DNA from: a virus
Taxonomy: Duplodnaviria; Heunggongvirae; Uroviricota; Caudoviricetes
DNA: 7,984 nt
IMG/VR virus record: IMGVR_UViG_2850808358_000006
Coordinates: 1-7,984 of that record
Direction: 5' to 3' (one strand)
A model generated the notes under the pieces. That model made no database searches and had not been told where the DNA came from. It saw only the letters and a list, made by a program, of their open reading frames with translations. Both the position numbers and the translations under genes were made by a program. Below, piece after piece: positions 1-7,984 of this stretch (the stretch's first letter is position 1; every line of letters starts with the position of its first letter).

Positions 1-57
1 GGTGCTGTCCTGTAAAGCAATGCGCCTGCGTTCCTCAAACTATGGCGCTGATAGTGG

Positions 58-363
58 CTATTCCTGCTCTTTGACCTTGCGTCGCTGGAGTTCTTCACGC
101 GCGACGGTGACGAGTTGCCCGATCTCCTCGGCGGCTTTGACTCCGATTTTTTCCACCTGCGCTAGGGCATCGAGCGAAGAAACCAGGAGGTTTTCTCCGC
201 TTCCTTCTGCCTGGCGGCGGGCGATTTCACCGCGCATGGCGGTTACTATGAATCCGGCGTTGCTTTCACCGTCCAGTTTTACGGATTCCATGCCTTCAAT
301 AACATCATGCGGGATCCGAGCTGTCAGTGATTGTGATTTTGCGTTTTTTGAACCTGTAGCCAT
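58..363 (-). CDS. ribbon-helix-helix (CopG/Arc-like) DNA-binding protein; candidate repressor divergent from the replication operon
   Basis: Minus-strand ORF (track 58..378, TTG start). I prefer the internal ATG at plus 363-361 because a GAGAGG Shine-Dalgarno lies 6-8 nt upstream (plus 369-377). The N-terminus SLTARIPHDVIEGMESVKLDGESNAGFIVTAMRGEIARR fits a beta-strand/helix/helix RHH pattern by eye. No database search run. Confidence 0.55.
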   Translation of the reverse strand: MATGSKNAKSQSLTARIPHDVIEGMESVKLDGESNAGFIVTAMRGEIARRQAEGSGENLLVSSLDALAQVEKIGVKAAEEIGQLVTVAREELQRRKVKEQE

Positions 364-379
364 CTGTAATCCTCTCAAT

Positions 380-465
380 GAAAGTGTAAGACAATATACA
401 CATAAAAAGTCTTACATAAAAGCATTGACATGTAAGCCACCTATAAATAAAGTTACTTACACCTT
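380..465. promoter_or_regulatory. divergent promoter/operator region: TTGACA (425-430), 17-bp spacer, TAAAGT (448-453), with two inverted-repeat operator candidates
   Basis: Inverted repeat 1: TGTAAGAC (385-392) and GTCTTACA (409-416), 16-bp spacer. Inverted repeat 2: TGTAAG (431-436) and CTTACA (456-461), bracketing the spacer and -10 of the rightward promoter. Lies between the divergent RHH gene and the plus-strand operon. Confidence 0.5.
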
Positions 466-559
466 GTTAATGCAAGGTGCAGAAACGACGAAACCCCGCA
501 CTGTAGGAGCAGTAACGGGGCTTCTAACCACCAACGATAGCAAGATTATCGAGGCAGCT

Positions 560-763
560 ATGAGAAATCATACCATACACCCGCAAGGGCGGGACTCGTA
601 CAACCTGAATAAATACATCTGGCGTTTTATCGCCCTGAGCACCGCACAACCGCGCGTGATTCACATCGTGGCCACCAGCGAACAGGAAGCACGCCAGCAA
701 TCCCCGGCTGGCTGCGTGATGGTATTCGCCGCCCGTATTCGTCAGGGGGTGTGCCATGCCTGA
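560..763 (+). CDS. hypothetical small protein (67 aa), first gene of the rightward operon
   Basis: ATG at 560 preceded by GAGG (551-554). Its stop TGA 761-763 overlaps the next start ATG 756 (ATGCCTGA), suggesting translational coupling. This is the C-terminal part of track ORF 2..763. No recognisable motif. Confidence 0.4.
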   Translation: MRNHTIHPQGRDSYNLNKYIWRFIALSTAQPRVIHIVATSEQEARQQSPAGCVMVFAARIRQGVCHA

Positions 764-1076
764 TATGTCAAATTACCAGTACCTGATTAATCCGCATTTT
801 AACTGTGAGCATGATATTGCTAAAAAGATTTATTCCGCTGCGGATGGGGCTACTGACAATATATCAATGGCTGTTGCGTCAATTGGTAGCCTGATGTGGC
901 ATGCGTCAGAAAATGAGGACTATGACGAAAAGGCCATGCGCATTGATATGGGTAATATCGGTTTGTTACTGGCAATGCTTGGACATTTTGATATTTCGTT
1001 ACGGTGCACCATTGAAAATGCCACAGATGCATTAAATGCTATAAAGAAAGCGAATACTGATTCAAATCGGGGATAA
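756..1076 (+). CDS. hypothetical protein (106 aa), AT-rich accessory-like gene
   Basis: Track ORF 756..1076. GGGGG run (745-749) 6 nt upstream of the ATG; overlaps the upstream stop. Visibly lower GC than flanking genes (by eye, not computed). No recognisable motif. Confidence 0.55.
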   Translation: MPDMSNYQYLINPHFNCEHDIAKKIYSAADGATDNISMAVASIGSLMWHASENEDYDEKAMRIDMGNIGLLLAMLGHFDISLRCTIENATDALNAIKKANTDSNRG

Positions 1077-1082
1077 ATAATC

Positions 1083-1382
1083 ATGAGAACGTATTTATCT
1101 GGCTTGACTGCCAGCGGTTATGCACACCCCCAAATTATCCCCGGCGCTATTTATCTGGATAAGAACGGTAACAGAGTAACGGTAAAAGAACTGATGTTTG
1201 ACCGTGTGTATTTTATCCGTGATGGCTATTCATTTCTTAGTTCGCTGAACGTGGAGATCTTTATTAGCAGATTCAGGCGGGAAATCCCGCTTTCCAGAAA
1301 TAACCATGTGTCATGTATGGATGTTGATAAAAAACTACAGGAACTAAAAAACATGATTGCCGCGTGGAGAGAGCAGAAATGA
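1083..1382 (+). CDS. hypothetical protein (99 aa), AT-rich accessory-like gene
   Basis: Track ORF 1083..1382. Stop TGA 1380-1382 overlaps the primase ATG 1379-1381 (ATGA), suggesting coupling. Lower GC by eye. No recognisable motif. Confidence 0.55.
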   Translation: MRTYLSGLTASGYAHPQIIPGAIYLDKNGNRVTVKELMFDRVYFIRDGYSFLSSLNVEIFISRFRREIPLSRNNHVSCMDVDKKLQELKNMIAAWREQK

Positions 1383-2500
1383 AAAAAGCGCCAAATTTAA
1401 AACACCAGCCGCGTGACAAAATGACGGAAGTCATCATTTTTGCGGGTAGTGATGCGTGGGCACATGCGAAACAGTGGCAGGAACAGGACGGGCGACTGGC
1501 TGGCGATAACGTGCCACCTGTCTGGCTTGGAGAGCAACAACTTGCCGAACTGGACAACCTGCAAATCGTACCGGACGGACGCTATCGCGTGCGTCTCTAT
1601 CAGGCGGGGTTATTGCGTCCGGGGCTTGTTAATACCATCGGGCAGAAACTGGCAGTGGCAGGTGTCAGGGATGCTGATTATTACCCTGAAGGAATGCACA
1701 GCCAGAAACGGGAGAACTGGCGCGAATATCTGGAACGTGAACGGGCAGAGCAGGCGGAAAAGAAAAAGGTAGTTGAACTGCCTGTAAAGAAAAAAGAGCC
1801 ATGCTATCAGGATGATGAATTAAAGCCCCGCGTTGAAAGTCGCGTCGATGGTGTTTTCTGGGTAACGCCCAAAGTGGATAAGCAGTCAGGCGAAATTATC
1901 CGGCCTGAGACGTGGTTATGTTCTCCGCTTGAACTACTGGGAACGGGGACGATCGGTAAAGAGCATTACCGCGTGATGCGCTGGAAAAAATTAGCAAACC
2001 ATGAAGTCATCACAATGGCGATCCCGTGTGGTGGCATTGGCGACCGTGACGGCTGGCGGTTGCTTAAAGATCACGGGCTGAACGTGACAACAAACGGCAA
2101 ATACAGGGCTATCCTGGCTGACTGGATGCAGTTAAGCGGAAGCCATGAGGAATGGCAGCTAAGCACAACAACGGGCTGGCATTTTGGCGCGTATATCATG
2201 CCGGACGGCTCAATCATTGGTGATTCTGAAAAACCGATCCTGTTTACCGGAAAAAGTGCCGCTGTTAATGGCTATTCGGTTGCGGGTACGGCGGAGGGCT
2301 GGCGCGACTGCGTGGCGCGGCTGGCTGGTGGCAATCCGTCCATGATGCTGGGTGTTGCCACGTCACTGGCAGCACCTTTGATTGGCCTTGTTGGTGCTGA
2401 CGGCTTCGGGTACATCTTTTCGAACAGTCATCGGCAGGGAAAACCACCACGCAGAACATCGCATCAAGTTTATGGGGAGAGCCGGACGCACAACGGCTGA
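1379..2500 (+). CDS. primase-helicase, N-terminal fragment (Toprim-like primase region); reading frame breaks near 2411-2416
   Basis: Track ORF 1364..2500 (GTG). I prefer ATG 1379, preceded by GGAGAGAG (1366-1373). Toprim-like segment TEVIIFAGSDAW ... RDADYY by eye. The frame-2 tail after about 2413 (IFSNSHRQGKPPRRTSHQVYGESRTHNG) looks like out-of-frame translation because the conserved helicase motifs continue in frame 1. Confidence 0.6.
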   Translation: MKKAPNLKHQPRDKMTEVIIFAGSDAWAHAKQWQEQDGRLAGDNVPPVWLGEQQLAELDNLQIVPDGRYRVRLYQAGLLRPGLVNTIGQKLAVAGVRDADYYPEGMHSQKRENWREYLERERAEQAEKKKVVELPVKKKEPCYQDDELKPRVESRVDGVFWVTPKVDKQSGEIIRPETWLCSPLELLGTGTIGKEHYRVMRWKKLANHEVITMAIPCGGIGDRDGWRLLKDHGLNVTTNGKYRAILADWMQLSGSHEEWQLSTTTGWHFGAYIMPDGSIIGDSEKPILFTGKSAAVNGYSVAGTAEGWRDCVARLAGGNPSMMLGVATSLAAPLIGLVGADGFGYIFSNSHRQGKPPRRTSHQVYGESRTHNG

Positions 2501-2601
2501 CCTGGTACGGCACAGCGTTAGGTATCGCTAACGAGGCAGAGGCGCACAACGACGGGCTGTTACCCCTGGATGAAATAGGCCAGGCCGGAAACGCGCGGGA
2601 G

Positions 2602-3501
2602 GTGTCCACGTCAGCCTATACGTTGTTTAACGGTTCCGGGAAATTACAGGGGGCGAAGGACGGCGGCAACCGGGAGATAAAACACTGGCGCACGGTGGCA
2701 ATCAGCACCGGAGAAATGGACGTTGAGACATTCCTCAAAACGGAGGGGATAAAAGTCAAAGCGGGGCAGCTTGTCCGCCTGCTTAACGTTCCGATGGAAA
2801 AAGCCACGCACTTTCACGAATACAGCACCGGAAAGGCGCACGCAGACGCGTTAAAGGATGCCTGGACAGAAAATCACGGGGCAGCGGGTCGTGAGTGGGT
2901 TAAATGGCTGGCAGGCCACCAGCAGGAGGCAAAGGATACGGTAAGGGAATGCCGCGAACGGTGGCGCAACCTGATACCGGAGAGCTACGGCGAGCAGGTC
3001 CACCGCGTGGGTGAGCGTTTCGCCATACTGGAGGCCGCGCTTGTGCTTTCCTGTCATGTAACTGGCTGGGCCGCGCAGGAATGCCGGGACGCAATACAGC
3101 ATAACTTTAATGCCTGGGTGAAGGAGTTCGGCACGGGTAACAGGGAATTTAAACAGATGGTTGAACAGGCTGAGGCGTTTTTGTCGTCGTTCGGGTTCAG
3201 TCGATACCTTCCTTACCCAAACAGTGATGAACGTGATTTACCGATTAAAGACCTTGCCGGATACAGAAAGGGGAGTATCAGAAATGAAGATGATGAGTTC
3301 CGTTTTTACACGTTTCCTCATGTGTTTGAGGGGGAGATCGCACAGGGATTTAACCCGTCCCACTTTGCCCGCGCGTTGAGTGCTGCCGGAATGCTGGAAG
3401 CGGGTAACGATCGCCGTTACAAGAAAAAGGCTCTCGGCAAAATTGGGGGGAAGCAGCATGTTTTTTACGTGCTGATGTTCCAGCCTGAGGCAGAAGATTA
3501 A
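2602..3501 (+). CDS. primase-helicase, C-terminal fragment (SF3/D5-like or DUF927-like helicase); homology extends upstream to about 2413 in the same frame
   Basis: Track ORF 2602..3501 (GTG). My manual frame-1 translation from 2413 gives HLFEQSSAGKTTTQNIASSLWGEPDAQRLTWYGTALGIANEAEAHNDGLLPLDEIGQAGNAREV, with Walker A (GKTT) at 2437-2448 and a Walker B-like LLPLDE at 2557-2574, then running into the track ORF. This means the two fragments are one gene split by a frameshift. Confidence 0.6.
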   Translation: MSTSAYTLFNGSGKLQGAKDGGNREIKHWRTVAISTGEMDVETFLKTEGIKVKAGQLVRLLNVPMEKATHFHEYSTGKAHADALKDAWTENHGAAGREWVKWLAGHQQEAKDTVRECRERWRNLIPESYGEQVHRVGERFAILEAALVLSCHVTGWAAQECRDAIQHNFNAWVKEFGTGNREFKQMVEQAEAFLSSFGFSRYLPYPNSDERDLPIKDLAGYRKGSIRNEDDEFRFYTFPHVFEGEIAQGFNPSHFARALSAAGMLEAGNDRRYKKKALGKIGGKQHVFYVLMFQPEAED

Positions 3502-3523
3502 CCCCCTGTGTGAGGTGAAAAGT

Positions 3524-3840
3524 TGCGGGTTATGCGGGTTACTCTGTGTATAAGTGCATTAACTGCATGAATAAAAAGGAAATCAATAACCCGCACGTAA
3601 CCCGCAAAACGGCAGTTATAACCCGCAAAAGTGCGATTATAACCCGCAGATGAATAACAGGAAGTGACAGCAAACAGCCACGCGTAACCCGCAGAAAAAA
3701 AACCGTTTGCGGGTTATTTTGAGCATTTTGCGGGTTACGCCACGGCTAAACAGTAAACAGTTAATTTTGTAATGTATTGATATTAAGGAATAAAAAATAC
3801 TTAGCAAGCGAAGATAACCCGCTAACCCGCATAACCCGCA
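3524..3840. repeat. iteron array (9-mer TAACCCGCA / TGCGGGTTA, about 12 copies) around an AT-rich core; putative origin of replication
   Basis: Reverse copies at 3524-3532, 3533-3541, 3708-3716, 3729-3737. Forward copies at 3587-3595, 3598-3606, 3619-3627, 3640-3648, 3685-3693, and three tandem copies across 3814-3840. AT-rich stretch about 3740-3812. Sits immediately 3' of the helicase gene, as in SaPI/PICI-type origins. Confidence 0.7.
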
Positions 3841-3879
3841 CTGTTTTGTATATATATACGAAAAATTGAGATCTGAACT

Positions 3880-4122
3880 ATGAAGGCAAACCGCAAACAA
3901 CCACACTACCGCGCTATTGACCTTACAGAGCACTGGCTGAGAGTGGCGATAAAAATCATCGACCGAAACACGGGGGAAGGATATGCAAAAGCACATCCCG
4001 AACTGATAAGCGCATTCATGACAACGGCAGCTGCAAACTTTGCCACGTTGACAGAACGGGAGATTGCCGAAGCGGAACAGGTAACAACCATCAACGTTAA
4101 AACCGGAGAGCAGACAGCATGA
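3880..4122 (+). CDS. hypothetical protein (80 aa)
   Basis: Track ORF 3880..4122. Stop TGA 4120-4122 overlaps the SSB ATG 4119 (ATGA). Weak Shine-Dalgarno. A TATATATA box (about 3849-3858) immediately follows the last iterons. Confidence 0.5.
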   Translation: MKANRKQPHYRAIDLTEHWLRVAIKIIDRNTGEGYAKAHPELISAFMTTAAANFATLTEREIAEAEQVTTINVKTGEQTA

Positions 4123-4541
4123 CAGCACAGATAGCGGCTTACGGGCGGCTGGTGGCTGACCCGCAGTTAAAGACCACCAGCAAGGGTACACAAATGACGA
4201 TGGCTAGTATGGCGGTACCCCTTCCGTGCAGCCAGGCAGATGACGGAACGGCGACGATGTGGTTATCCGTCCTGGCGTTTGGCAGACAGGCCGACGCACT
4301 GGCAAAACACCACAAAGGCGAACTGGTGAGCGTGGCGGGTAACATGCAGGTAAGCCAGTGGACAGGCCAGAACGGCGAAACGCGGCAGGGCTGGCAGGTT
4401 ATCGCAGACAGCGTAATCAGTGCGAGAACGGCGCGACCGGGCGGAAAAAAAGGCCAGCAGGGGCAGGCTACTGACGCACTGAACAGGGCAAAACAACAGG
4501 CGGGTAACGATGATCCGTACGGGGATAACATACCGTTTTAA
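4119..4541 (+). CDS. ssb: single-stranded DNA-binding protein (SSB family, short form, 140 aa)
   Basis: OB-fold pattern similar to E. coli SSB by eye: MWLSVLAFGRQADALAKHHKGELVSVAGNMQVSQWTGQNGETRQGWQV compared with [43 protein letters not shown]. Gly/Gln-rich linker and C-terminal tip DDPYGDNIPF, matching the conserved SSB protein-interaction tail that ends in IPF. Confidence 0.8.
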   Translation: MTAQIAAYGRLVADPQLKTTSKGTQMTMASMAVPLPCSQADDGTATMWLSVLAFGRQADALAKHHKGELVSVAGNMQVSQWTGQNGETRQGWQVIADSVISARTARPGGKKGQQGQATDALNRAKQQAGNDDPYGDNIPF

Positions 4542-4556
4542 ACAACGAGTAACAGA

Positions 4557-4579
4557 AGCCGGAGAAGTCCGGCTTTTTT
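4557..4579 (+). terminator. rho-independent terminator after ssb
   Basis: Stem AGCCGGA (4557-4563) and TCCGGCT (4568-4574), loop GAAG, followed by a T-run through 4579. Confidence 0.75.
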
Positions 4580-4585
4580 ATGCCC

Positions 4586-4626
4586 AAAAAAAGCCCGATA
4601 AGGTCAGAGGGTCTTATCGGGCTTTT
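4586..4626. terminator. second hairpin, bidirectional-terminator-like (A-run, 11-bp stem, T-run)
   Basis: A7 (4586-4592); stem AGCCCGATAAG (4592-4602) and CTTATCGGGCT (4613-4623); 10-nt loop; TTTT (4623-4626). Confidence 0.55.
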
Positions 4627-4707
4627 GCATATGAGGCTTTTATCTAACAGTATGGTAACTACTGTTGTCGGAGATAATTTCATAATTTGCAACACAACTC
4701 AACATTA

Positions 4708-4764
4708 TTGCGTAAAATGAAATCATGATTATAATCACAACTGGATGAACATCCAGTTGTGATT
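4708..4764 (+). promoter_or_regulatory. candidate promoter of the capsid operon (TTGCGT -35, perfect TATAAT -10 at 4730-4735) overlapped by a perfect 15-bp palindrome
   Basis: AATCACAACTGGATG (4733-4747), 2-bp centre, CATCCAGTTGTGATT (4750-4764), then TTTT. The palindrome begins inside the -10 hexamer, so it is either an operator for a dimeric regulator or an RNA hairpin. Confidence 0.45.
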
Positions 4765-4791
4765 TTTAACGTCAAAGAGGAATTTCCGACT

Positions 4792-4998
4792 ATGGCAGAA
4801 GAGAAAAAAGGCGGGGTGACAGTTTACATAAGCCCAGACATCGTGGAGGCGCTCAGGGAACGCCACCAGCAGAACGTAAAAGCAGGCATTGCGGCAGGAC
4901 TTGATCCGCTGGCGATGGTTGAGCCGTCAACAGGCTGGCAGGTACGCGCCTATTTACGCGCGGCGCTGGGCATGAATCAGACGCATGGAGGTGAATAA
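4792..4998 (+). CDS. hypothetical small protein (68 aa) preceding the major capsid gene
   Basis: Track ORF 4759..4998 (GTG). I prefer ATG 4792 with AAGAGG (4775-4780) upstream. Stop TAA 4996-4998 overlaps the capsid ATG 4998 (TAATG). Function unknown; a scaffold or regulatory role is speculation. Confidence 0.45.
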   Translation: MAEEKKGGVTVYISPDIVEALRERHQQNVKAGIAAGLDPLAMVEPSTGWQVRAYLRAALGMNQTHGGE

Positions 4999-6053
4999 TG
5001 GCAGGCAAAGCAACGGCACTTAACACTAACCAGCTTTTCGCGTACCTGAATCGCGGGGATATTGCGGAATTTAAATTCAGTCCGCTGTTTACCACGCTGT
5101 TTTTCCCGAACGTGGCGACATTCAACACCCAAAACATCATGCTGGACACCCTGGACATTGAAGAGGTTACGATGTCGGCGTTTTGTTCGCCTATGGTGGG
5201 TAGTCAGGTCCAGCGCGATAAAGGGTACGAAACCAGCACGATTAAACCTGGATACATGAAGCCGAAGCACGAAATCGATCCAACGAAAACCATCATGCGT
5301 ATGGCTGGAGAAGATCCGGCACAGCTTAATGACCCAACCTATCGCCGTATGCGCCTGATTACTGGCAACATGCGCCGCCAGATAAACGCCATTAAGGCAC
5401 GCGTGGAATGGCTGGCGGTGAATGCGATAACGACCGGAAAAAACATCATTGAGGGCGAAGGCATAGAACGCTATGAAATAGACTGGAAGATCCCAAGTAA
5501 AAATATCGCCAGACAGGGACCGGGTAAAAAGTGGTCAGAGGCAGATAAGGAAACACACGATCCAATCTATGACATCGAGCTTTATGCTGATCAGGCTGGT
5601 TGCCCCGCAAACGTCATGATTATGGGCGCTGAGGTATGGCGCACGTTACGCAGCTTTAAAAAATTCCGTGAGCTGTACGATCTTTCCCGTGGTTCAGAAT
5701 CCTCCGCCGAACTGGCCTGTAAAAACCTGGGCGAAGTGGTGAGCTTTAAAGGCTATCTGGGCGATATTGCCCTTATCGTCTATTCCGGCAAATACGCCGA
5801 CAGCGACGGCACAGAAAAATATTTCCTTGAACCTGATTTGCTGGTCCTGGGCAACACCAACAATAAAGGGCTGGTGGCCTATGGTGCGATTATGGATCAG
5901 GACGCAGTAAGAACGGGGGCAACGCAAAACATGTACTACCCGAAAAACTGGATTGAGGACGGCGATCCGGCGATTGAGTACGTGCAGACGCACAGCGCAC
6001 CGCAGCCGGTTCCGGCAGATATTCGCAAATTTGTTACTGTCAAAATTGCTTAA
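4998..6053 (+). CDS. major capsid protein, phage lambda gpE family (351 aa)
   Basis: Colinear with lambda gpE by eye along the whole length. Examples (window vs lambda): FKFSPLFTTLFFPN vs FKFDPLFLRLFFRE; KPGYMKPKHEIDPT vs TPGYVKPKHEVNPQ; DPTYRRMRLITGNMRR vs DPAYRRRRIIMQNMRD; FKGYLGDIALIVYSGKY vs YKGMYGDVAIVVYSGQY; VLGNTNNKGLVAYGAIMDQDA vs VLGNTQARGLRTYGCIQDADA; YYPKNWIEDGDPAIEY vs RYPKNWVTTGDPAREF. GGAGGTGA Shine-Dalgarno at 4987-4994. Confidence 0.9.
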   Translation: MAGKATALNTNQLFAYLNRGDIAEFKFSPLFTTLFFPNVATFNTQNIMLDTLDIEEVTMSAFCSPMVGSQVQRDKGYETSTIKPGYMKPKHEIDPTKTIMRMAGEDPAQLNDPTYRRMRLITGNMRRQINAIKARVEWLAVNAITTGKNIIEGEGIERYEIDWKIPSKNIARQGPGKKWSEADKETHDPIYDIELYADQAGCPANVMIMGAEVWRTLRSFKKFRELYDLSRGSESSAELACKNLGEVVSFKGYLGDIALIVYSGKYADSDGTEKYFLEPDLLVLGNTNNKGLVAYGAIMDQDAVRTGATQNMYYPKNWIEDGDPAIEYVQTHSAPQPVPADIRKFVTVKIA

Positions 6054-6064
6054 CGGGGGATTCT

Positions 6065-6400
6065 ATGGACACTCCATACATTGAGTTATTTGCAGGCAGC
6101 CAGCAGGTATCCACGACGCTGGTACATTTTGCCGCTGATGCTGGCGTTATTCAGGAATTTACCCCGCTGATGCTGGCGGACAATGGCGAGTTTAAGGCGT
6201 GGGATGGTCAGGAATCTGGCAAGGCTGTTTATCTGACCTCGTACCCCGTGGACACGTCGACGCAGAAATCAGCACAGTGTTACAAGACGGGGATATTTAA
6301 TATCGCCGCCGTTAACTGGCCTGAGAGCGTCGACACCGACGCGAAAAAATGCGCCGCCTTTGCGGGTTCTGGTGTATCTGTTCAGCCGCTGGCGCGATAA
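6065..6400 (+). CDS. head decoration protein, phage lambda gpD family (111 aa)
   Basis: By-eye alignment with lambda gpD: TPLMLADNGEFKAWDG vs TPLMLDTSSRKLVAWDG; YKTGIFNIAAVNWPESVDTDAKKCAAFAGSGVSV vs [40 protein letters not shown] Shine-Dalgarno at 6055-6060. Confidence 0.85.
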   Translation: MDTPYIELFAGSQQVSTTLVHFAADAGVIQEFTPLMLADNGEFKAWDGQESGKAVYLTSYPVDTSTQKSAQCYKTGIFNIAAVNWPESVDTDAKKCAAFAGSGVSVQPLAR

Positions 6401-6413
6401 GCAGGGGGGAACG

Positions 6414-6827
6414 ATGGCAACGAATGAAAGTATCATGGCGCTACCGCTGGCGAGTAAATTTAAAGCTGAAGCGCGGGCAATGGCTGACAGATGTCTATCA
6501 ACCTACGAAGCTATATATCAACTTAACAAACTGGAAGAACAGGACAAGCCGCGCGCTGATGCGATTATGTCGCTTCATGAATCTGACGACTATCAGCCGC
6601 TGTTACGTGCAATGGCAAACGTGCCTTGTATTGATGTTGATACGGCTAAAAACATCCTGAACATGACCATAGAGCAGGAACGCCAGAAGGTTGCACCAGA
6701 GCTTACCGCAGCCTTTGAAAACTTTATGGACATGCACAGCCCACAAGCCGTATCAGCTGGCATGGCATACGATGGCAGAAACCCGGGCGATGACGGCGAC
6801 ATTGATCGCATACTGAAAACCATCTGA
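6414..6827 (+). CDS. hypothetical protein (137 aa), last gene of the capsid operon
   Basis: Track ORF 6360..6827 trimmed to ATG 6414, which follows a GGGGGGA run (6404-6410). Followed by a terminator. No recognisable motif; not obviously lambda FI or FII. Confidence 0.6.
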   Translation: MATNESIMALPLASKFKAEARAMADRCLSTYEAIYQLNKLEEQDKPRADAIMSLHESDDYQPLLRAMANVPCIDVDTAKNILNMTIEQERQKVAPELTAAFENFMDMHSPQAVSAGMAYDGRNPGDDGDIDRILKTI

Positions 6828-6833
6828 GACAAG

Positions 6834-6855
6834 GCCGGAGAAATCCGGCTTTTTT
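6834..6855 (+). terminator. rho-independent terminator after the capsid operon
   Basis: Stem GCCGGA (6834-6839) and TCCGGC (6844-6849), loop GAAA, T-run 6850-6855. Nearly identical in sequence to the terminator at 4557-4579. Confidence 0.75.
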
Positions 6856-6976
6856 GCGGGTCCTTTCCGGCATATGGACCTGTTACGGGGCGGCGACCTC
6901 GCGGTTTTTCGCTATTTATGACGTTTTTCCGTGAAGGTGACACCACCACCACTTGATTAACATTTAACCAGTTAAT
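6856..6976 (+). other. lambda-type cos site (cosQ-like 6858-6870, cosN cohesive-end core GGGCGGCGACCT 6888-6899, short cosB-like region)
   Basis: GGGTCCTTTCCGG ... GTTACGGGGCGGCGACCTCGCGGTTTTTCGCTATTTATGA matches the joined lambda right end and left end (GGGTCCTTTCCGGTGATCCGACAGGTTACG + GGGCGGCGACCTCGCGGGTTTTCGCTATTTATGAAAATTTTCCGG), recalled from memory. Downstream CGTTTTTCCGTG (6922-6933) resembles the lambda R3 element CGTTTCCGTTCT. Followed by CACCACCACC and the palindrome TTAACCAGTTAA (6964-6975), then the Nu1-like gene. Confidence 0.8.
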
Positions 6977-6988
6977 TGAGGTAACATT

Positions 6989-7423
6989 ATGATTGATAAG
7001 ACTTGTTTTGTAAGTCAGCAGGAAATAGCTGAACATTTCAAGGTAAACAGAACCACTATTCGCGCATGGACCAAACAGGGGATGCCGTATCTTAATGCGG
7101 ATCGCGGAAAGTCCGGCGGTTATCACATCGGGCATACATTGCTTTGGTCTTCAGGTAAAAGCCATCTTGAGGCCATTGGATATCACGTAGAAACCAGTGC
7201 GCTGGAAAAAATTATGGTTGCCAGGCTGCTTTCATCTGAGCGTGACGAGTACTCCAGTGAAGAAACAGAACATCGATTTGATGAAGGTTTGCAGATTTAC
7301 GGCTATTCACCGGAAGATGTGAGCAAAGCACGAAATAAAATGGCTGGCTTTCTGGCTGGGTGGCGTCATGCAGTAAGCGTTCGCCGTGCCAGCATGGAGC
7401 AATCAGCCGATACCGAACAGTAA
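6989..7423 (+). CDS. Nu1-like small terminase subunit homologue (winged-HTH DNA-binding domain), 144 aa; possibly a packaging-redirection (Rpp-like) factor
   Basis: N-terminus QQEIAEHFKVNRTTIRAWTKQGMPYL matches lambda Nu1 KKQLADIFGASIRTIQNWQEQGMPVL by eye. About 35 aa shorter than Nu1. No large-terminase gene follows. TGAGGT Shine-Dalgarno at 6977-6982. Lies directly downstream of the cos site. Confidence 0.75.
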   Translation: MIDKTCFVSQQEIAEHFKVNRTTIRAWTKQGMPYLNADRGKSGGYHIGHTLLWSSGKSHLEAIGYHVETSALEKIMVARLLSSERDEYSSEETEHRFDEGLQIYGYSPEDVSKARNKMAGFLAGWRHAVSVRRASMEQSADTEQ

Positions 7424-7479
7424 AGCCGATAACTTGTTAATCACTCGCAGCAATGCGTGTGATTTGTGCACACTTTCGG

Positions 7480-7670
7480 TTAACTGGTTCGATGTCCGGT
7501 TTTAGTGTCTGTTTTTTGCGCATGTCCGGTTCATGGAAAGCATGTTTTTGTATTTTTCATATAGTTAACTTGAAGAGAAGCCGGACATGGCTCCTGGAAA
7601 ATTTTCATAAATAGCGAAAACCCGCGAGGTCGCCGCCCCGTAACGGGCCATAATTCCAGGAAGGACCCGA
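7480..7670 (-). other. second cos-like site in inverted orientation (cosN core on the minus strand at 7627-7638, cosQ-like at 7656-7668, cosB-like region with three ATGTCCGG-type repeats)
   Basis: The reverse complement of 7594-7640 reads CGGGGCGGCGACCTCGCGGGTTTTCGCTATTTATGAAAATTTTCCAG, near-identical to the lambda cosN left flank. Repeats ATGTCCGG at 7492-7499 and 7522-7529 and the inverted CCGGACAT at 7581-7588 occupy positions like lambda R1/R2/R3, with an AT-rich stretch between them. TTAACTGGTT (7480-7489) mirrors the palindrome in the first cos site. Confidence 0.65.
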
Positions 7671-7702
7671 CGACACCAGACTATCAGAACGATGGGGGCA
7701 CA

Positions 7703-7984
7703 ATGACAGAAGCCGAAATACTGGGATTAATCCGTCGCGTTACCGGAATCAGCCAGCAGGCTGACGAACAGACCACGCAGCCGGACAGCGTGACAGCCGA
7801 AAACTATGCGCGTGTTGTGGCTGAGGTGATGCGCCGTGATGGTATTGAGCTTAACGGCGAGGATATGCGCAACATACGAACCAGAGTTCTCGGGTTGTTG
7901 TCATACCGTCGCCGTTCTCAACAACGGAGGGAGAGCGCGAAAAATACTTACCAGTGGAAGAAGCCGGAACGGCTGCGGCGGTAA
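7703..7984 (+). CDS. hypothetical protein (93 aa)
   Basis: Track ORF 7703..7984. GGGGG run at 7694-7698 upstream of the ATG; stop TAA at the window end. Basic C-terminus (RRRSQQRRESAKNTYQWKKPERLRR). No recognisable motif. Confidence 0.5.
   Translation: MTEAEILGLIRRVTGISQQADEQTTQPDSVTAENYARVVAEVMRRDGIELNGEDMRNIRTRVLGLLSYRRRSQQRRESAKNTYQWKKPERLRR

Follow-up and report, generated by a model that had tools for sequence, protein, structure and literature searches.

A second, convergent cos site in EcCICFT073-type islands of Escherichia coli and a candidate class of helper phages for it

Why would a helper-dependent satellite keep two cos sites that point at each other, when the second of them lowers its transfer by lambda? 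The question is raised by a 7,984-nt stretch of DNA from a Caudoviricetes virus (IMG/VR record IMGVR_UViG_2850808358_000006, positions 1 to 7,984; hereafter the window), in which two lambda-type cos cores (6858-6921, plus strand; 7605-7668, minus strand) face each other around a 144-aa gene. Its sequence marks the region as the packaging module of a helper-dependent satellite of E. coli, a phage-inducible chromosomal island (PICI) of the EcCICFT073 type. The window is an ordinary ortholog of the published and experimentally characterised EcCICFT073 module, which consists of cos1, rppA and cos2, and its sites are those printed as 'CFT073 cos.1' (plus strand) and 'cos.2' (minus strand) (PMC6092414 Fig S5). 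The feature is thus already known, and a preliminary description of this DNA missed that the whole arrangement is published and partly tested by experiment. What is new here is that cos2 is matched to a specific phage and to a class of small terminase subunit (TerS). The Fillol-Salom papers of 2018 and 2019 identified no phage cosB in either site and left open the reason for having two (PMC6092414, PMC6739421). We consider it rather probable that cos1 is the Rpp-dependent site and that cos2 is a copied phage cos, through which another class of helpers may package the island without Rpp.

Two facing sites and the phage counterpart of cos2

The two sites form a 74-nt inverted repeat with 84% complementarity (6857-6930 / 7596-7669). 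A 20-mer that holds the lambda cohesive end, ACGGGGCGGCGACCTCGCGG, occurs exactly twice, once on each strand (6885-6904, plus; 7622-7641, minus), with none expected from 200 shuffles. The 40-nt cosN-I2 core is identical at 39 of 40 positions; both sites have the same 12-nt cohesive end, GGGCGGCGACCT, with flanking symmetry and with a cosQ (GGGTCCT) 30 nt upstream that aligns with those of lambda, 21 and PhiR12, and both keep a lambda-like stretch downstream of the cohesive end as far as CTATTTATGA. Past the core, the cosB parts are unrelated (52% identity). The cosN-to-cosN distance is 739 bp, and all nine E. coli two-cos loci examined are convergent. The preliminary description had reported two convergent lambda-type cos sites around a TerS-like gene, with a near-identical core holding the lambda cohesive end and with differing cosB regions, and in all of this, coordinates and anatomy alike, it was correct.

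What kind of site is cos2? Read against phage cos regions, it is a complete, minimal phage cos, with cosQ, cosN, R3, an AT-rich spacer, R2 and R1 in place (Table 1). The repeat ATGTCCGG is found three times in the window, always within cos2 (7492-7499 and 7522-7529 on the plus strand, 7581-7588 on the minus strand), where 0.28 occurrences are expected by chance and no shuffle reached three; the order R3, AT-rich spacer, R2, R1, which had been proposed beforehand for these repeats, is confirmed. The R1 box is oriented like R2, whereas in lambda and phage 21 it is oriented like R3, and the distance from R3 to cosN is that of R3 in phage 21 and lambda. The IHF consensus has no match in the AT-rich spacer at up to one mismatch.

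From 7670 to 7492 on the minus strand, cos2 is 90.5% identical over 179 bp to phages PhiR12_1 to _5, in which the match sits between Rz and a Nu1-type terS, the position of a phage cos. The alignment starts at cosQ, ends right after the R1 box and is free of gaps, which leaves the box spacing intact. Over cosB alone, 105 of 112 positions (94%) of the window and 110 of 112 (98%) of CFT073 cos2 are identical to PhiR12; the core of cos2 is identical to prophage cos cores at 40/40 positions, and cos2 matches lambda at 100% over 49 nt. The spacer between cosQ and cosN behaves differently: it has 14-16/24 identities to phage (16/24 to PhiR12) as against 24/24 between islands of the types A and B described below. 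An island-specific spacer shared by both types makes cos2 a mosaic and puts the left edge of the swapped segment within the shared cosN core. A literature search on the PhiR12 phages, which are viable, returned nothing relevant.

The cosB of this kind, here called type A, is common in the host: 1,185 of 5,426 complete E. coli genomes contain it, at 1,910 places in all. Four prophage places were examined, three of them sampled and the fourth the potB prophage of CFT073; at each, terS WP_000235436.1 follows the cosB directly, with terL also downstream at the three sampled places, and the PhiR12 phages carry the same TerS sequence. The CFT073 prophage, between potC and potB, has its cos at 1,348,503-1,348,720 together with terS WP_000235436.1 and ends about 5 kb from the island integrase. 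This TerS aligns with lambda Nu1 only from residue 86 onward (46% identity), and its first ~70 residues have no detectable similarity to Nu1; the published Rpp-escape residues of lambda TerS (V3, Y50, A55, E65 and D68-R70) all fall in that non-homologous N-terminal part. The potC-potB prophage itself (CFT073 1325000-1374900) looks nearly complete; its antiterminator gene and lysis genes are separated by an IS200, it has several pseudogenes, and its R2 box is a variant, CCGGGCATG.

The convergent layout recurs in further E. coli islands with rppA-like genes, with a different cosB at cos2. Type A, with boxes ATGTCCGG, is found in the window and in islands L001 and L002 and corresponds to the prophage cosB upstream of terS WP_000235436.1. 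Type B, with boxes GGTTGTTGT / ACAACAACC, is found in islands L019-L022, and in O111 and other strains its prophage counterpart precedes terS WP_001426432.1 or WP_001519435.1. Type C, with boxes CACTTCCGG / CCGGAAGT, is found in island L023 and corresponds to a prophage cosB upstream of terS WP_201479400.1, a TerS classed by its Pfam match alone. Direct comparison of the type-A and type-B TerS, drawing on the terS genes of L008, L025, L026 and L003, shows C-terminal halves that are nearly identical from about residue 95 onward, and unrelated N-terminal domains. A TerS DNA-binding domain and its cosB thus appear to be swapped as a unit among lambdoid prophages. Within the type-A and the type-B cosB the R boxes are more conserved than the spacers, with invariant columns numbering 25/26 inside the boxes and 64/88 outside for type A (p = 0.013), and 16/18 and 70/124, respectively, for type B (p = 0.009).

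Rearranged islands bear on how such exchange might proceed. An rpp-less variant (L024; NZ_CP080260.1 3783234-3787303) has, within its positions 1741-2336, a forward type-A cosB at the cos1 position, then a piece of the rpp 3' flank in reverse, a forward-oriented remnant of rpp 3' sequence and a facing type-B cos2; about a dozen genomes have this layout, as judged by their pattern of partial matches. The layout implies that inversion and exchange across the cos cores do occur. The cosN variant GGGCGTCGACCT is common to both sites within L020 (1370-1433 / 2137-2200) and within L024 (1741-1804 / 2273-2336), which suggests either that the inverted cores have undergone gene conversion or that a helper TerL selects both sites jointly. 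Two close relatives with the cos1 cosN GGGCGGCAGACG, L021 (2115-2177) and L022 (2116-2178), have different cohesive ends at cos2, GGGGGTAGCCATACGCGC and GGGGGTCATGGGACGCGC, respectively; this divergence may represent decay or a further cosN type.

Table 1. Features of the packaging module and its borders in the window (box and cos sequences of cos2 are given on the minus strand)
Feature	Position	Strand	Basis or remark
Terminator-like GC hairpin and T-run, GGCCGGAGAAATCCGGCTTTTTT	6833..6855	+	read directly; ends the upstream gene just before cos1
cosQ of cos1, GGGTCCTTTCC	6858..6868	+	pattern scan; aligns with cosQ of lambda, phage 21, PhiR5 and PhiR12
cosN-I2 core of cos1	6882..6921	+	39/40 identical to cos2
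cosN of cos1, GGGCGGCGACCT	6888..6899	+	identical to lambda; equals published 'CFT073 cos.1' (PMC6092414 Fig S5)
cosB of cos1, single R3-equivalent GACACCACCACCAC (6939-6952) then TTGATTAA	6939..6960	+	proposed RppA-TerS binding site
Small palindrome, TTAACCAGTTAA	6965..6976	+	just upstream of the rpp ribosome-binding site
rppA ortholog, 144 aa (redirecting-phage-packaging protein)	6989..7423	+	matches RppC structures and c1503
R1 box of cos2, CCGGACAT	7492..7499	-	phage homology ends here
R2 box of cos2, CCGGACATG	7521..7529	-	box repeat and alignment
AT-rich spacer of cos2, lambda I1 position	7540..7575	-	gapless alignment to PhiR12 and prophage cosB
R3 box of cos2, CATGTCCGG	7581..7589	-	inverted relative to R2 and R1
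cosN of cos2, GGGCGGCGACCT	7627..7638	-	equals published 'CFT073 cos.2'
cosQ of cos2, GGGTCCTTCCT	7658..7668	-	pattern scan
93-aa island gene, phrog_1561	7703..7984	+	conserved, downstream of cos2

cos1 and the Rpp gene

The role of the first site has largely been worked out in published experiments. RppA binds the helper's TerS, and the complex abandons the phage cosB for that of cos1, as seen with cosB swaps and chimeric phi80; RppA raises the transfer of cos1 plasmids, and in swaps this dependence tracks the cosB of cos1. Binding of the helper's TerS and redirection to the island cosB were reported for RppA and RppC alike (PMC6739421). The window's rppA has 97.5% nucleotide identity to CFT073 c1503. 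Its product matches the RppC structures 6hlk and 6hn7 (E = 8e-32; 6hlk over residues 2-125), with weak matches to structures of the lambda TerS DNA-binding domain, and the residues with which Rpp contacts DNA (R21, T22, R25, K29 and K41) are invariant in an 11-sequence alignment. Alignment of Rpp with Nu1-family TerS stops before the conserved C-terminal domain, a Pfam search gave no Phage_Nu1 match to RppA, and the 144-aa protein has no TerL-binding C-terminal domain. The label 'Nu1-like', given to the gene beforehand, holds for its TerS-like winged-helix DNA-binding domain and fails for a terminase subunit, the protein being RppA, which needs the helper's TerS (PMC6739421). Rpp relatives were gathered by exact-protein look-ups; a scan of species-representative genomes for relatives confirmed none. 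Two Salmonella Rpp loci (L014 and L017) adjoin phage late genes (FI, head-tail attachment, Z and U), like published helper-embedded satellites; their cosN differs (GGGCGACGCGCT or GGGCGGAGCGCT), and a further gene, of ~142 aa, separates cos from rpp.

Where in cos1 would the complex of RppA and TerS bind? We propose the cosB at 6939..6960. A block at the R3 position, ACACCACCACCAC followed by (T/A)TGATT, is invariant in the E. coli, Klebsiella and Salmonella islands with any of four cosN variants, and throughout the Rpp islands of these hosts the R3-equivalent stands at a constant distance from cosN. In 2022 Murialdo and Feiss, whose treatment did not extend to cos2, proposed an 'R3-PICI' at bp 48-65 that is invariant over bp 55-63; the window's block matches their proposal (PMC9026076). 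The preliminary description had instead chosen as R3-like the stretch CGTTTTTCCGTG (6922-6933), which aligns with lambda AAAATTTTCCGG and not with R3. Klebsiella and Salmonella islands have the lambda sequence at that stretch, which is therefore part of the common core rather than a box specific to Rpp. Aligning the cos regions to those of phages, as had been suggested, thus upheld the cosQ and cosN shared with lambda, 21 and PhiR12 and overturned the R3 assignment. Nor is the palindrome TTAACCAGTTAA, described as shared by the two sites, conserved: CFT073 cos1 has TTAACCATGCAGTTAA and other islands have TTAATCGCATGATTAA. Among islands the arms of the palindrome at cos1 are kept and its centre varies (TTAAC..GTTAA or TTAATC..GATTAA), and its match to the far end of cos2 is peculiar to this window.

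Three one-mismatch near-matches to the IHF consensus lie within 50 nt on the minus strand (6946-6994), covering the cosB of cos1 and the beginning of rpp; across the window as a whole the pattern shows no enrichment. The hairpin ahead of cos1 is kept in CFT073 and in strain 2014C-3307 and was not listed by a consensus terminator scan, and a promoter and terminator scan of 6700-7984 did no better than shuffles.

Possible uses of the second site

Both sites are functional in published assays. Lambda and phi80 each transduce a plasmid with either site, at lower efficiency than one with their own cos (PMC6092414, PMC6739421). Deletion of cos1 lowers island transfer, deletion of cos2 raises it (significantly with lambda) and deletion of both abolishes it; without cos1, transfer persists at a residual level via cos2 (PMC6092414).

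How might two such sites be used side by side? At cos1, RppA and the TerS of a lambda-, phi80- or 21-type helper would together read the site, packaging would run rightward and the helper would be starved of terminase; this route of island packaging and helper block has been published for the CFT073 ortholog (PMC6739421). The candidate class for cos2 comprises lambdoid phages with a Nu1-family TerS of the WP_000235436.1 type, whose N-terminal DNA-binding domain is unrelated. A type-A terminase would bind cos2 directly, without Rpp, and package the island leftward, and the island would thereby be mobilisable by two helper classes. Recombination with prophages in the shared cosN core would swap the cosB of cos2. 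We give an even chance to the fuller proposal that cos2 is a modular helper-range cassette, with its cosB exchanged at the cosN core shared with lambdoid phages, resident or incoming, among at least three classes according to the TerS specificity encountered, and that the Rpp-dependent route at cos1 and the Rpp-independent route at cos2 are insulated from each other by convergence.

Why should the sites converge? Termination in lambda uses cosQ and cosN, not cosB, and is polarity-dependent. A second site in direct orientation would therefore end the runs begun at the first, and convergent orientation could let a motor that sets out from one site disregard the other. Under a helper that is not cognate, such as lambda, stray cuts at cos2 would break concatemers and make the site a liability, which fits the published rise in lambda-mediated transfer after its deletion.

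Several observations weigh against this proposal. The type-A TerS is probably insensitive to Rpp, and the basis for saying so is a lack of sequence similarity only; packaging of the island by a type-A phage through cos2 we infer from sequence comparison. The Rpp islands of Klebsiella and Salmonella have cos1 alone within 2.5 kb, which shows that a second site is not essential. The type-B and type-C cosB had no match in deposited phage genomes, their matches coming from prophages in E. coli genomes, and the common type-B island cosB is only 76% identical to prophage cosB. Genomes with type-A islands have a further type-A cosB in 41 of 57 cases, against a background of ~21%, an enrichment that is confounded by clonal relatedness and in which the second copy is confirmed as a prophage in CFT073 only; the corresponding test for type B found a second type-B cosB in 3 of 35 island genomes, against ~4.4%, and no enrichment. 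Finally, induction and transfer in CFT073 require only the 21-type prophage #4, whose deletion abolished transfer, and deletion of any other prophage had no effect, so that the resident type-A prophage is not a sufficient helper in CFT073. That prophage may be defective or unable to induce alpA, and its IS200 and pseudogenes may explain the null effect of its deletion.

What else could cos2 be? It seems rather improbable that it is a neutral or mildly harmful relic, a phage cos gained by recombination or by inversion or duplication and without function for the island. Transfer by lambda does rise on its deletion, Klebsiella and Salmonella islands do without it, type-B islands seldom co-reside with type-B prophages, and the strong divergence of the 12-nt cohesive-end region between L021 and L022 is perhaps decay. 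A relic, however, would not be expected to keep an exact cosQ-to-R1 module with every box and spacing intact and with boxes more conserved than spacers, or to exist as three cassettes that share position and orientation across diverged islands of two cosN families. It would also not be expected to function in plasmid transduction and support residual island transfer without cos1; and a costly relic should vanish, yet every E. coli rpp island sampled has cos2. With still less probability, cos2 is mainly an interference device, with which replicated island copies would soak up a type-A terminase beyond the reach of Rpp and block phage packaging, while packaging of the island itself would be secondary. 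For titration cosB alone would be enough, yet cosQ and cosN are kept, and intact cosQ, cosN and cosB would be cut and packaged, not just bound. Helper interference is a hallmark of these islands and the cognate cosB and unrelated TerS N-terminal domain would speak equally for this use.

We regard it as distinctly unlikely that cos2 is there for the 21-type helper native to CFT073, prophage 4. Phage 21 has R boxes (CGTGTCGG, CCGACATG and CATGTCGGG) that resemble ATGTCCGG and stand at the same distance from cosN, but they differ by a one-base insertion and R1 has the opposite orientation; the cos of 21 and phi4 align with cos2, but a far closer match (94-98%) exists to the cosB of a different TerS family. 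Prophage 4 is the sole CFT073 prophage needed for transfer. Rpp is reported to bind TerS-21, which points to cos1 as the route of this helper (PMC9026076). That the convergent sites drive in-situ outward packaging before excision, carrying host DNA on both flanks in a two-way lateral transduction, is hardly credible: the geometry of the integrated island, with cos1 pointing to attR and cos2 to attL, is its one attraction. Each site points inward over rppA first, a first headful from cos2 would be mostly island DNA, and no chromosomal marker was transferred from CFT073 lysates (lac only).

Island context and related systems

At 92-94% identity, the window matches a chromosomal island present in 64 complete E. 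coli genomes, among them CFT073, where the island lies between roxA and phoQ and carries an integrase, an AlpA-type regulator, a primase, SSB and capsid-like genes. The synteny of an EcCICFT073-type PICI is present in the window (primase, SSB, capsid-like genes, cos1, rpp, cos2 and a 93-aa gene); int, alpA and the att sites fall beyond its 7,984 nt and were seen in the matching loci L001 and L002. The same packaging module occurs at five different chromosomal sites, beside phoQ, clpS, allC, thiM and yejO. Since a conserved island gene of 93 aa lies beyond cos2, the site is internal to the island. With host flanks also lying past cos2 and with phage homology running from cosQ to R1 only, the comparative genomics rejects two elements abutting head to head, one of four explanations offered in the preliminary description, and likewise an adjacent unrelated prophage remnant as the source of the second site; among those four, exploitation of two helpers with two cosB specificities fits the comparative evidence best. 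An assembly artefact is ruled out by the identical arrangement in many complete genomes, and a cosmid or vector origin by the differences between the two sites and the natural island context.

Elsewhere in the window, the DUF927 primase-like replication gene lies in two frames (1364-2500 and 2602-3501). In a tblastn search with the intact 710-aa primase-like protein of strain 2014C-3307, residues 1-371 matched in frame 2 and residues 348-710 in frame 1; the split may be a frameshift pseudogene or a sequencing error, and this copy of the island may not replicate. Three capsid-related genes occupy 4998-6053, 6065-6400 and 6414-6827; the proteins concerned are a major capsid protein like lambda gpE (Pfam E = 2e-50), a gpD-like decoration protein and a 137-aa protein similar to the C-terminal part of a head maturation protease/scaffold (phrog_53 positions 493-567). 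The 2018 paper described the island as being without capsid morphogenesis genes, and deletion of c1499 and c1500 gave no phenotype (PMC6092414). A 253-aa open reading frame at 2-763, whose C-terminal 90 residues match phage transcriptional-repressor families (phrog_6196, E = 2e-50), begins at the window edge, so its true start may lie outside.

How does the arrangement compare with known systems? EcCICFT073 (cos1 / rppA c1503 / cos2) has the same gene order, convergent sites and cosB sequences in a near-identical module; its cos2 cosB is 93.8% identical, it has TTAACCATGCAGTTAA in place of TTAACCAGTTAA, and the window's primase gene is frameshifted by comparison. The PhiR12-type phages and the WP_000235436.1 prophages (such as those at CFT073 potB and in O157:H7) have the same cosN, R3, spacer, R2 and R1 at identical spacing, with cosB 84-98% identical to that of cos2. 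In a PhiR12-type phage the lysis genes precede cos and terS and terL follow it, whereas the island's cos2 is inverted, stops after R1, has an island-specific spacer between cosQ and cosN and is without a cognate terS. Among the classic classes, N15 shares the single R3-equivalent of cos1, and lambda and 21 share the three R boxes and AT-rich spacer of cos2. In the lambda, 21 and N15 classes, specificity resides in cosB and the TerS N-terminal domain and cosN is shared (PMC9026076). Their R-box sequences differ from those of the window (ACCACCACC, ATGTCCGG), R1 is inverted relative to R2 in lambda and 21 and a direct repeat of it in cos2, and the window, unlike all three, has two specificities on one replicon. 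SaPIbov4 and SaPIbov5 are likewise satellites with a helper-type cos in place of their own terS, and SaPIbov4 is said to have two putative cos sites (PMC6092414). Both differ from the window in having unrelated sequences and hosts and no Rpp-like adaptor. The satellite P4, like the window's island, has a copy of its helper's cos, that of P2, and is packaged by the P2 terminase; it differs in having a single P2-type cos, with no second specificity and no TerS-binding adaptor.

For the second site of these islands, use by a second class of helper is the best-supported reading, with a specific candidate class suggested by cosB and TerS comparison. With cos2 read as a copy of the cos of a common prophage class, and with at least three cosB versions, each paired with a different TerS DNA-binding domain, the puzzle of the opposed site is now testable. 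If the reading is true, satellites would track the diversification of packaging specificity among their helpers by cassette exchange, and the range of phages expected to carry these islands, with their cargo, between pathogenic E. coli would widen.

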